From positions 1 through 27,153 of IMG/VR virus record IMGVR_UViG_3300027518_000028: a stretch of 27,153 nucleotides of DNA; one strand, given 5' to 3'. The notes under the pieces are model-generated. The model was not told where the DNA came from. It ran no database searches and saw nothing but the letters and a program-made list of their open reading frames with translations. Position 1 is the first letter of the stretch. The number at the start of each line of letters is the position of its first letter. Shown piece after piece: positions 1-3,264 of the stretch. Source of the DNA: a virus. Lineage: Duplodnaviria > Caudoviricetes. Both the position numbers and the translations under genes were made by a program.

Positions 1-3
1 CTT

Positions 4-303
4 TTACACAAGTCCAGGGTGTATACCCTTGTCTCGGTACTCTGAGAGCCTGGGGCCCCGTGCCTTGCTTGCCTCTTCACTTGTTTTACGTTTGTGGTGC
101 CAAGTGCACAAGAGTCTCAGGTTATTTAGGTCGTGGCTTCCGCCGGCCGCCAGGTTTACTATATGGTCCACGTCCGAGCCCTTGTGTGTGCAACCGCTCT
201 CGTCTTGACATTGTCCGCCAGCTCTCTGTATTACTAACTGTCTAGTGTTCGACCACCCTAGGGGGTCTTTAGGTCTACGGCTCGAGTCCCAGTTATGCGA
301 CAT
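4..303 (-). CDS. HNH endonuclease (probably terminase/cos-associated)
   Basis: C-Q...C, DVDHIVNL..GG.HDLNNLRLLC.WHH..KT HNH motif; last gene before the genome end, a typical position in cos-type siphoviruses. Confidence 0.9.
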   Translation of the reverse strand: MSHNWDSSRRPKDPLGWSNTRQLVIQRAGGQCQDESGCTHKGSDVDHIVNLAAGGSHDLNNLRLLCTWHHKRKTSEEASKARGPRLSEYRDKGIHPGLV

Positions 304-340
304 AGGGGGGGTCTCCGACGATATGTAAGATATAAGCGCG

Positions 341-471
341 ACCGTTTGTACACTACCGTTTTAGCACTCTATACGCTACCGGAATATCACTTTGTCGGCG
401 TACCCAGTCAGGTTAGTGTTTGTCGGCGAGCGCCGTAACCGTTTGTATAAATATGTATGCCAACGTTTATA
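341..471. repeat. Cluster of short direct repeats in the non-coding interval upstream of the terminal HNH
   Basis: ACCGTTTGTA at 341-350 and 438-447 (variants ACCGTTTT at 355 and AACGTTTATA at 462); TTTGTCGGCG at 391-400 and 419-428. Confidence 0.55.
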
Positions 472-497
472 GAGGTATCGGGCTATTAGTTTTGTTG

Positions 498-575
498 TGG
501 ACGCGGCGAGAGTCGAACTCGCGTACGGATCGTGTCCACGTGTGGCTTTACTATCCGGCGTAACCTATCGCGCCC
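498..575 (-). ncRNA. Minimal tmRNA-like RNA (tRNA-like domain only, Ala identity)
   Basis: Minus strand: GGGCGCG AUAGGUUACGC CGGAU..22 nt..AUCCG UAC GCGAG UUCGACU CUCGC CGCGUCC A. It has a 7-bp acceptor stem with G3-U, discriminator A, a canonical T arm, a stemless D-loop with GG and no anticodon arm. Confidence 0.75.
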
Positions 576-895
576 TACTCGGTGGGCAGACGTACACTAT
601 TGGACCAGCGCTGTCCTGCGTCTCCACCCCACGCGTCCCACGCCACACGGCCTGGGCTAGGGTAGCCGTCCTCGCCACGTGTAAACCCTTGCGCTTCCTT
701 GTCTACCTCGTGTCGTGCAAAGTATGAGCGCATACGCTCGATAGTTTCCTCGGATACTGGGCGACCGTTGGCTAGTTGCACAGCTCTCGCCCTACCAGTG
801 TCTGTAAAGCCTGAGCCGGCTCGGCGCTCAGCGATCCATATTAGGGCTCGCTTGGCTGCCTCTTGGACGTCGGCCGGTGGGTTATACGTCGCCAC
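575..895 (-). CDS. Conserved phage hypothetical protein (RAxQL...RMxSYFARH...AWDAWGG domain)
   Basis: GTG start coupled to the upstream stop (TAGTG); from recall, this motif set occurs in phage head-associated proteins. Confidence 0.75.
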   Translation of the reverse strand: MATYNPPADVQEAAKRALIWIAERRAGSGFTDTGRARAVQLANGRPVSEETIERMRSYFARHEVDKEAQGFTRGEDGYPSPGRVAWDAWGGDAGQRWSNSVRLPTE

Positions 896-1050
896 TACTT
901 GACCGGTCTAAGGTGTCTAGTCGCAGTCTTGCGTTTCGCTCGGTTCGCACCGACTCGAACAACAGCAAACATTAGCGCAGACACAAACACTACGCTCATT
1001 AGGGCTAGAGGCACAGCAATTACCCACCCGATAAACTCCCATACGCTCAT
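895..1050 (-). CDS. Small single-TM membrane protein, 51 aa (not in ORF track)
   Basis: MSVWEFIGWVIAVPLALMSVVFVSALMFAVVRVGANRAKRKTATRHLRPVK; ATGA overlap upstream, TAGTG overlap downstream, GAGG-rich RBS. Confidence 0.7.
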   Translation of the reverse strand: MSVWEFIGWVIAVPLALMSVVFVSALMFAVVRVGANRAKRKTATRHLRPVK

Positions 1051-1283
1051 AACTCCACCTCACCGTAGGCTGACTTACCCCACTCGAGTAAACCGGTTAC
1101 AGCATACAACGGGGTCGTAGCTGCGCGAAACACTACAATCTCTGCGCTTTCGCCGTCCGAGTCCATAGTGGCCGTCGAGGCGACCACTACCCAGTCGCGC
1201 ACAAAGTCTGCAACCTCTAACGCTTCGTCGAGCACGTGCTCGCTAATGGCCCGACCTAACGCGTCGTAAGTCTCGGCCGACAT
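1047..1283 (-). CDS. Hypothetical acidic protein
   Basis: 78-aa ORF with GAGAGG RBS, coupled to the next gene. Confidence 0.7.
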   Translation of the reverse strand: MSAETYDALGRAISEHVLDEALEVADFVRDWVVVASTATMDSDGESAEIVVFRAATTPLYAVTGLLEWGKSAYGEVEL

Positions 1284-1398
1284 AAAATACCTCTCGTAAA
1301 CCTGGCGTAGTCCCTGTCTTATTGGCTAAAGCCTCGACCGCCAAACGGTAGTCGTATCGTAGAGTGTGGACTATTGCCATAGGTCACTTAAAGTAAAC

Positions 1399-2136
1399 CT
1401 AAATAGATCGTAAAGTGCTAGTGCCGTCGGCGCGTTTAAGGCGCTGCCATTTACCGCAGTCGTGGCACCTGTAGCGAGGGTATGACTGGCTTGTCGTGTA
1501 GTAACGGCCTCGCACGGTTATATGGTCACTACCGCAAGCCACACACGACTCGGGTTTACCGTTCGAGAGCGCAGTGTTAGGTAGTTGACCGTCGGCCCAC
1601 GGGCGCAGTTTCTCGTAGAGCTCCACGAGTAGCTTTACGTCTTGTATCTGATATTTGCGCATAGTGCGCCAAGCTTTATCGTCGCCAGCCATAACGTCGA
1701 GCCATAACTGAAAACCGGTGTGGGATACTTTCGCTCCAACACCTAAACGTTGTGCAACGTAGTCGAGCTTGTTGCTCGGAAACCTAAACAAGCGTTTTAC
1801 CAACGCCATAAGGTCAAAGTCTTTAGTCGGGCTCGGCGGCAACATACCGGCCTCTAAAAATTCTCGGCGGATATGTTTGTGGTCAAAGCCTTTAGAATTC
1901 CAGCCAACAATAACGTCGGCCTCGTCCATTAGATCGTAGAGCGCCTGCAACATACCGGCTTTACCGTCGTGGTAGACCGAGTGAAAATATGTACGCTTCT
2001 CGCCGTACCACTGAGCTCCGAAACAGATAACCTCGGTACTCGAGACAATCTGCGAGAGGCTAACGTTCTGCTGCCACAAGCCCCACGTGTGAGCCGTCAT
2101 AGGCGACGTCTCTAAATCAAAAAAGAGGATACGCAT
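1399..2136 (-). CDS. DnaQ/RNase H-like 3'-5' exonuclease with C-terminal Zn ribbon
   Basis: ExoI FDLETS, ExoII GWNSKGFD, ExoIII YQIQDV, KLDYVAQRLG; C-terminal CVAC...CHDC. Confidence 0.85.
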   Translation of the reverse strand: MRILFFDLETSPMTAHTWGLWQQNVSLSQIVSSTEVICFGAQWYGEKRTYFHSVYHDGKAGMLQALYDLMDEADVIVGWNSKGFDHKHIRREFLEAGMLPPSPTKDFDLMALVKRLFRFPSNKLDYVAQRLGVGAKVSHTGFQLWLDVMAGDDKAWRTMRKYQIQDVKLLVELYEKLRPWADGQLPNTALSNGKPESCVACGSDHITVRGRYYTTSQSYPRYRCHDCGKWQRLKRADGTSTLRSI

Positions 2137-2930
2137 TAGTGCCTCTCGATTTTGGGCAGACTAATAGAGCGCACCTCAATAGTACCACAATTCTCGAACA
2201 TTTGTTCGACACTTTCCGCGTTTTCGTTATCGGCGTGTCTCAGCTCTTCGCTTTGGTCTATTTCGTACCTGAGCTGGCGCATACCTCGACCGTGTAGCCA
2301 CGTCGCCGAGCACGCAATACAACGCGCTTTAGTGTGATCTAGAGACCGGTACTCGACGATACGAGACTCGACCAGAATTGCGCGACGGTAAACGCCTTGC
2401 TCGTCGTTGCCGTGTGTGGCTTCACAGCGAGGGCACGGCGCAGTAATCTCTAACGCTGTAGGTGGGCTCAGTTTGCTCTCTATCGCGTAAGCCATAGCGT
2501 TTAGTTTGCGTAGCTTGGCTGCCATAACCTCGGCCGACACTTTACGGGCGTTCACCTGATTTTTAAACTCGATATACCAGTGCCGTAGGTTACTCTCTGG
2601 GCTCGCAAACGGTTTAGCGTCCGTCACCTCTTTAAACAGCTTTACCGCCTGCCCACGGATCGCTTCGTAATGTTCCAGCGCGTCCGCGTCGATAACGTTA
2701 CGCTCCGACGCTAACCCTGCGCCTTGCACTGTAGAGCCGAGACTTGAATGCACCGCCATACGTAGCTGGACGATTAGGGCGTCGTGCAACATAGTAACCC
2801 GTTGCTCTTTACCCTCGTCCTCTACCAACACCTCGGACTTGTGGACCCGTGTAAGCCGGTCCACAACGTTTAGTAATTCTTCCAGGTGGTTAAAAGGGTG
2901 CACTAGCGTCGACCTGGGTGCCTGGGCCAA
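2136..2930 (-). CDS. Conserved actinophage protein with C-terminal Zn ribbon (possible transcription regulator); start uncertain
   Basis: 264-aa ORF with CPRC...CIAC, at the end of the early region; TAATG coupling to the exonuclease. Confidence 0.65.
   Translation of the reverse strand: MAQAPRSTLVHPFNHLEELLNVVDRLTRVHKSEVLVEDEGKEQRVTMLHDALIVQLRMAVHSSLGSTVQGAGLASERNVIDADALEHYEAIRGQAVKLFKEVTDAKPFASPESNLRHWYIEFKNQVNARKVSAEVMAAKLRKLNAMAYAIESKLSPPTALEITAPCPRCEATHGNDEQGVYRRAILVESRIVEYRSLDHTKARCIACSATWLHGRGMRQLRYEIDQSEELRHADNENAESVEQMFENCGTIEVRSISLPKIERH
2179..2209 (-). promoter_or_regulatory. Putative promoter (TGTGG-TACTAT extended -10) overlapped by an actinobacterial LexA/SOS box
   Basis: TCGAAC-ATTT-GTTCGA at 2194-2209 matches the TCGAAC-N4-GTTCGA consensus exactly; -10 TACTAT at 2184-2179 on the minus strand. 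Confidence 0.7.
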
Positions 2931-3264
2931 CCGTCGCCCACGTTTCTGTAACGGCCGCCACCCCCACCTTGTCAGACATTACGGGCGAGTCCACAACTGT
3001 TACGCGAGGCTTGTTTACCTTAAGGGCGACCGCGTAACCTTTACCGCTGCCGTCGCGCTTGTCGTACTCGTCAACGCTTGCAGAGAGTAGGCCCTCAACG
3101 TTTACCACCGATCCCTCGGCTAAATTGTGTGCCTCGTCAAAGAATAGTGAGTACTTGGTCGTGCGCTCCGAGCCCTGGGTTACGTAACGCTCCACAACCT
3201 GAGCGCCTTTACCCTCCCAAAAAACGCGAGTCACTTGCACTTGGTTTAGTGTGATTTTAGCCAC
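2890..3264 (-). CDS. ssb: Single-stranded DNA-binding protein (putative)
   Basis: OB-fold-like beta pattern (GSVVNVEGLL, EYDKRDG) and C-terminal D..APF tail typical of SSBs. Confidence 0.7.
   Translation of the reverse strand: MAKITLNQVQVTRVFWEGKGAQVVERYVTQGSERTTKYSLFFDEAHNLAEGSVVNVEGLLSASVDEYDKRDGSGKGYAVALKVNKPRVTVVDSPVMSDKVGVAAVTETWATVGPGTQVDASAPF

Follow-up and report, generated by a model that had tools for sequence, protein, structure and literature searches.

An earlier note, made from the sequence alone, described a tmRNA's tRNA-like domain (TLD) standing by itself, without a tag domain, in a stretch of phage DNA, which raises the question of what such a gene is, how far it is shared and what it would do to trans-translation in the host. 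The window analysed here is that whole stretch, 27,153 nt long (IMG/VR record IMGVR_UViG_3300027518_000028). The locus at 498–575 on its minus strand is a TLD-only (tagless) tmRNA gene of the kind carried by phage DS6A, an assignment about which we have very little doubt. That kind is already in print (PMC4131195, PMC11915505), contrary to the novelty that the note implied, and the gene is one more example of it, real and conserved.

Identity and structure of the gene

The stand-alone TLD is borne out by covariation, described below, and by a match to the Rfam tmRNA model RF00023 (46.4 bits, E 1.4e-16; 0.6 bits under the gathering score of 47), in an alignment that spans both gene ends in standard order and replaces ~306 model positions by 14 nt. 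A model built in this analysis (R1) scores the gene at 81.1 bits, the window gene being part of its training set. A scan for this architecture matched one place in the genome and none in 300 Markov-simulated genomes. The proposed structure, at -27.1 kcal/mol, comes close to the minimum predicted for a slightly longer stretch, and folding energy by itself is not significant (z -0.82; 40 of 200 shuffles equally good). ARAGORN returned 0 genes in the window and so misses this one.

The 7-bp acceptor stem (G1-C72, G2-C71 and G3·U70, followed by A73), the T arm, the stemless D-loop and the linker all lie where they had been placed (Table 1), and G1 is indeed the last base of the upstream TAG. The interior had to be partly redrawn. 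The first five pairs of the P2 helix do enclose 22 nt, but the helix goes on for two pairs beyond an A·G mismatch, and the proposed 4-bp CCAC/GUGG minihelix around 2 nt is more plausibly 3 bp (CCA/UGG) closed by a CACG tetraloop; this short hairpin closes the helix, and the mRNA domain is absent. A full CCA is missing, as described, but its first base, C74, is encoded at 497, the remainder not. The absence of a tag ORF and of pseudoknots stands, there being no room for them between the TLD halves and no frame with a tag-like end (hydrophobic-Ala-Ala-stop) anywhere in the window.

Table 1. Coordinates of the gene, its parts and neighbours in the window, and of tmRNA genes in cultured Streptomyces phages
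Feature	Position	Strand	Remarks
TLD-only tmRNA gene	498..575	-	G1 at 575, discriminator A73 at 498; RF00023 match
Acceptor stem, 5' strand	569..575	-	G3 at 573; three compensatory changes relative to L003
Acceptor stem, 3' strand	499..505	-	U70 at 501
Stemless D-loop with GG	558..568	-	11 nt; last base covaries with first linker base family-wide
P2 arm	526..557	-	8-position helix, 557-550 with 533-526, one A·G mismatch
P2 arm interior	549-546; 545-536	-	A-rich loop; 3-bp hairpin with CACG loop
UAC linker	523..525	-	3 nt; GAC in most family members
T arm	506..522	-	5 bp and 7-nt loop; paired in 72/72 and 54/54 sequences
3' trailer and AT-rich spacer	304..497	-	Missing along with the RNA in relative L004; varies among strains
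Upstream ORF, phrog_2859	575..895	-	106 aa; stop codon ends in G1; same overlap in L003
Downstream HNH endonuclease	4..303	-	phrog_333, E 3e-27; precedes head genes on the joined genome
LuckySocke tagless tmRNA	L405 3001-3078		Unannotated
Shaeky tagless tmRNA	L406 2491-2569		Unannotated
BRock tagless tmRNA	L407 2991-3068		Unannotated
Riptide tagless tmRNA	L408 2977-3053 = PV654398.1 83298-83374		Unannotated; 67 bits
Riptide full tmRNA with tag	94862-95128		Annotated; 267 nt

A tRNA-Ala was rejected, since ARAGORN is blank and the D stem and anticodon stem-loop are absent; the Rfam listing, which gives the best match per clan only, shows tmRNA and no RF00005 score. The decayed ordinary tRNA that the note had named as a possible better fit is taken up below among the relics. 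A permuted two-piece tmRNA was rejected on the standard order and on the lack of a permuted-model match in 1–3000, though the gene of phage Tunturi_5 (below) does match. A remnant of an ssrA attachment site was rejected because both gene ends are intact and no integrase occurs among the window ORFs scanned (37 in one scan, 22 in another).

A promoter scan of 1–3000 gave 0 sigma-70-like sites and no terminator was found close to the gene; repeats in 1–1500 formed short chance-like families only. Contigs from one RNA run match 1058–1270, outside the gene, and are not evidence either way. Part of the spacer, 390–440, holds a 10-nt direct repeat and is matched, in several runs, by high-depth contigs that come from other sources; it is perhaps a shared phage regulatory site.

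The phage and its relatives

The window belongs to a tailed phage, with terminase, portal, capsid, tape measure, lysis genes and WhiB. Its host is likely actinobacterial, because the best relatives of the terminase are in Gordonia and Streptomyces phages. An identical metagenome contig connects the end of the window to its start, so the window is probably an almost complete genome, although in CheckV the record is entered as linear, at 44% completeness. Near-identical DNA was found in lake and subsurface runs from 14 studies, and the phage is one of lake and groundwater. No smpB was found in the window genome or in the five carrier records searched. The upstream phrog_2859 protein has no Pfam family, and its Atlas neighbours are unnamed; the domain, present in ~4,000 IMG/VR stretches, stands alone in the window and is elsewhere fused, going by cluster names, to longer head-type proteins. 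Only 1 of 80 phrog_2859 loci had the RNA in the fetched flanks (L130, 1.5 kb off), which argues against a coupling between the RNA and this protein family.

Homologues and covariation, the check that the earlier note had proposed, came out in favour of the RNA: G3·U70 is kept and pairing covaries across related phage loci. Relative L003 (RF00023, 52.0 bits) carries the RNA at the syntenic place; among 20 pair positions it shows 8 double changes, all compensatory, while G3·U70 is unchanged. Locus L541, at 100% identity to the window, does not count as independent support. The RNA is dispensable, because in relative L004 it is cleanly missing together with the spacer. Among strains, the lake runs X4, X5, X6, X8 and X10 carry an allele differing at four places, in which G20-C49 has become A-U (556/527, compensatory), the A·G mismatch has become a U·G wobble (552) and one loop base is altered, so that three of the four substitutions keep or add pairs; runs X3 and X13 show the window allele. 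Several strain contigs stop at 497, the encoded C74. Record 13 of X13 has ~74 extra bases between the upstream stop and the first base of the RNA (575–577), an insertion of the size of a tRNA gene.

Family size, pairing and covariation

Pattern scans of IMG/VR gave at least 120 loci each. Among the 120 matches listed for a hairpin-blind scan, a script classed 69 as TLD-only (42 that have the hairpin and 27 others), with 29 3' ends of full tmRNAs, 16 unclear cases and 6 called tRNA making up the rest. Since an estimated ~2,600 IMG/VR stretches match this pattern and 69/120 are TLD-only, the family comprises ~1,500 stretches, a redundant count and not one of species. An acceptor-blind scan yielded, among 120 matches listed, 38 with full T and acceptor stems (32 distinct by reading); G3·U70 and A73 are present in 37 of these 38 complete matches, and in the last (L307) if one bulged nucleotide is permitted. 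Where ordinary phage tRNAs got through this filter, they had G3-C70 and A3-U70.

We aligned 72 distinct sequences (71 out of 118 candidates, plus L357; mean identity 62%), leaving out tRNAs, full-tmRNA ends and TLD-only forms with another interior. The proposed pairs were formed in 84.2% of cells compared with 62.4% after shuffling. In 54 sequences outside the model the figures were 92.6% and 62.2%, with 379 double changes against 128, although this alignment was fitted to the model, 52 of the sequences came from a pattern imposing G3·U70, and the shuffle controls ignore relatedness. All pairing counts rest on anchored and model-fitted alignments, which lean toward structure; RNAalifold on a plain MAFFT alignment of the 72 sequences recovered the T arm only, probably because G runs and indels shift registers.

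Across the family, the D-loop GG is present in 131 of 134 members, lengths are 77–80 nt in 106 of 137 candidates, and C74 is encoded in 130 of 137 (full CCA in 30); the family structure has neither a D stem nor a 7-nt anticodon loop. Covariation links the final base of the D-loop to the opening base of the linker in the 111 of 133 members that have a clear P2, A going with G in 63 and C with U in the window gene, with a mutual information of 0.55 compared with a shuffle maximum of 0.18 and 0.23 at a neighbouring control position (relatedness included). We take these elbow positions to be the ones that pair in E. coli tmRNA as the non-canonical A20·G333; a literature search on that pair found nothing.

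An inner AAAG-CC motif was rejected as a resume codon because its triplet is variable and the loop is unconstrained in sequence, and CACG is not essential: the first patterns imposed it, but the hairpin-blind scan found many loops and the lake strains read CCCG. Comparison with full tmRNAs suggests that the hairpin may come from the 3' strand of P2, to which the Glycomyces genes, picked by pattern, fit and five unbiased host genes only partly. Tagless tmRNAs of 71–89 nt with other interiors were also seen (L013, L042, L049, L057, L068, L093, L096 and L098), as they were in 27 further loci of the hairpin-blind scan, which suggests that the mRNA domain was lost several times independently. Locus L119 (301–368) holds a tRNA-like gene of 68 nt, on which ARAGORN is blank; it has a D arm and G3-C70, and its anticodon arm is shortened. 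An exact search of viral contigs with 17 bases of the gene 5' end gave 0 matches.

Distribution in phages and bacteria

A blastn search with the region led to an unannotated site in phage DS6A, an 80-nt TLD with an identical A-rich loop and CACG hairpin. The cultured Streptomyces phages LuckySocke, Shaeky, BRock and Riptide, the four fetched, carry unannotated copies inside tRNA arrays, and blastn suggests further copies in GiJojo, pSt2308 and Alone3. Many actinophages have full tmRNAs, but among ten carriers searched over the whole record a full tmRNA was found in Riptide alone; conversely, four phages with full or permuted tmRNA gave no strong TLD-model match (best E 3e-6). No integrase or SmpB was found among 87 ORFs flanking the RNA. 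One of the gene contexts lies between protease and capsid; others are after capsid, before a helicase and before HNH. A recurring slot after phrog_8424 and before phrog_7813, unnamed families in a head-gene position, was seen in L386, L222, L223, L249, L271, L082, L054 and L080. The Tunturiibacter phage Tunturi_5 (L002 1470–1766, PP885688.1) has a permuted tmRNA (86.4 bits) whose tag frame is long and which is likewise unannotated.

A pattern scan of species genomes gave 76 matches, mostly 3' ends of full tmRNAs, of which 18 were TLD-only by reading, 13 of these in Actinomycetota records. All five named bacterial carriers tested have a full tmRNA elsewhere. Few families flank the seven bacterial loci, some of them phage-type. 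One Pseudonocardia genome has two different tagless tmRNAs (L353 5001–5080 and L395 5001–5080) beside a full tmRNA.

Our search of the open literature, subscription papers lying outside its scope, found no paper on a widespread phage family of TLD-only tmRNAs. Nawrocki 2025 (PMC11915505) names, in its text, only DS6A as a phage CDS-less form; its supplements or database may list more, and its curation is described as having discarded some large internal deletions.

Comparison with known systems

The closest published gene is the DS6A TLD-only tmRNA (tmID 11587, Phage__Mycobacterium.9, NC_023744.1 28478–28557; PMC4131195, PMC11915505). Both genes are phage-encoded, in standard order, tagless and stemless in the D-loop, with G3·U70/A73, C74 only, a P2 arm with an A-rich loop and a 3-bp CACG hairpin, and an actinobacterial host group. 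They differ in length (78 nt in the window, 80 nt in DS6A) and RF00023 score (46.4 compared with 43.2 bits), and the window phage is unrelated, 27 kb long, with other gene context, a diverged D-loop and the UAC linker; its RNA overlaps a real upstream stop, whereas the annotated gene in DS6A ends 10 nt earlier.

Full tmRNA (RF00023), as in the Streptomyces phages Riptide and Jada, shares the TLD, P2a helix, T arm and alanine identity, but the window gene lacks the tag frame and pseudoknots and is ~290 nt shorter than actinobacterial host genes. CDS-less organellar tmRNAs (mitochondrial RF02544; the ~65-bp Mallomonadaceae plastid genes), as described in PMC11915505, are also a tagless selected TLD; they are usually permuted, however, whereas the window gene would be an extra copy alongside an intact host tmRNA. 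RF02544 was not among the Rfam matches listed for the window. Carsonella smpB-ssrA resembles the window in that 5' maturation is expected to remove a stop (PMC4131195), but the window overlap is of 1 nt, involves a phrog_2859 phage gene and recurs with at least four gene families.

Proposed action on the ribosome

The reading that we prefer, and to which we give about even chances, is that the charged RNA enters non-stop ribosomes, adds alanine without a tag and so competes with host tmRNA. From what is known of tmRNA biology, the RNA would be cut out of a longer phage transcript by RNase P, its CCA completed by CCA-adding maturation, and its end alanylated via G3·U70; host SmpB would bind at the elbow and EF-Tu be loaded. 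Brought to ribosomes that have halted on mRNA lacking a stop codon, it would attach alanine and no degradation tag, displacing host tagging. Because SmpB is reported to bind the TLD elbow (PMC3968760), we count the D-loop/linker covariation for an SmpB-binding mechanism. TLD and SmpB reportedly suffice for template-free polyalanine in vitro (PMC3929946, PMC2481249, citing Shimizu and Ueda 2006), and the DS6A form reportedly inhibits the tmRNA that E. coli itself makes (PMC11915505). Hudson 2014 (PMC4131195) states that a similar TLD-only molecule inhibits tmRNA 'whether or not chargeable', with titration of SmpB as a possible route; as worded, the two accounts disagree on which RNA was tested, that of DS6A or 'a similar molecule' (Mao 2009).

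We favour a charged, ribosome-entering RNA because inhibition is reportedly independent of alanine and yet G3·U70 is invariant. Charging could also be kept for stability, or for avoiding an uncharged-tRNA signal, and not for ribosome entry. A role as wholesale inhibitor would be odd, because Riptide (one of ten carriers) also carries a full tmRNA with a tag.

Overlap with an upstream stop codon

In 10 of 128 members, the window included, a UAG that ends a run of at least 60 open codons has G1 as its final base. Across 57 offsets further upstream there were 28 such stops, and among 140 G-starting tRNAs in the same loci there were none (Fisher p 0.013, or 0.044 once three related or doubtful cases are dropped). 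Of the overlapping ORFs, 6 of 10 have family support, in four gene families, and three are without a family; in DS6A the overlapping frame differs from the annotated one. Because G1 is shared with the stop codon, 5' maturation would leave a non-stop mRNA. The same consequence of tmRNA maturation is described for Carsonella smpB, and such overlaps are put at about 1 of 15,000 mRNAs (Hudson 2014, PMC4131195).

We caution that a leading G by itself makes UAG likelier and that tight gene packing could lie behind the overlap; its absence in 118 of 128 members, and the ~74 bases between stop and RNA on the X13 strain contig, argue against a required role. The fuller proposal, that the tagless family, spread over phages of Actinomycetota and other groups, actively reroutes rescue, with untemplated alanine replacing the ssrA tag, and in some phages, the window phage among them, adds an arfA-like switch through stop loss, is one that we hold only tentatively and think more probably wrong than right. 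Under such a switch, an upstream protein made from non-stop mRNA would survive only while host tagging is held down.

Alternative explanations

The molecular steps could be identical and the benefit be added ribosome rescue, the RNA being a compact tagless rescuer similar to mitochondrial tmRNA. CDS-less tmRNAs persist with SmpB in mitochondria and in some plastids (PMC11915505), the full tmRNAs of many actinophages indicate that phages can want extra rescue, and Riptide has both forms; against this, the RNA has no stop codon and hence no obvious release step, and inhibition is the sole in vivo effect reported in the accounts at hand (PMC4131195, PMC11915505). We consider this explanation unlikely, though a serious one.

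That the RNA is a decoy, or a substitute target, for host defences directed at the ends of tRNA or tmRNA is improbable in our view. The copies within tRNA arrays of four cultured Streptomyces phages are consistent with it, as are a tRNA within 1 kb in 14 of 71 loci and the prediction that the SmpB-like domains of CoCoNuT systems bind tmRNA (PMC10542128), but the other 57 loci have no tRNA that near (some loci being short), and the RNA offers no anticodon loop to anticodon nucleases. Also improbable is a mere SmpB sponge without any action on the ribosome, as was proposed in print for a DS6A-like molecule (PMC4131195). Copies often adjoin head genes, for example protease/major capsid, which would give high copy number; however, if inhibition is independent of charging, as reported, a sponge would not explain why G3·U70/A73 is invariant among the complete matches listed, nor why C74 is encoded in nearly all candidates.

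A relic, whether an integration-site remnant, a decayed tmRNA or a decayed tRNA-Ala, is very improbable and appears already largely refuted by covariation: dispensability in L004 and the copy on the Poriferisphaera chromosome that directly abuts a tyrosine integrase (L359 5010–5086), which may be an integration site, speak for it, but both ends are present and paired, the changes relative to L003 and among strains preserve pairing, lengths are narrowly distributed, and no integrase was found in the scanned window ORFs or the 87 flanking ORFs.

Significance

The single gene is not a discovery, its kind being in print from one phage, DS6A. The weight lies in scale, such genes standing unannotated in ~1,500 IMG/VR stretches (a redundant count) and in more than one cultured Streptomyces phage. 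This scale, together with the kept alanine identity and the elbow covariation, brings two open questions within reach of tests in laboratory strains: how a tagless tmRNA acts on the ribosome in vivo, which is asked of mitochondrial tmRNA likewise, and whether phages deliberately retune trans-translation.
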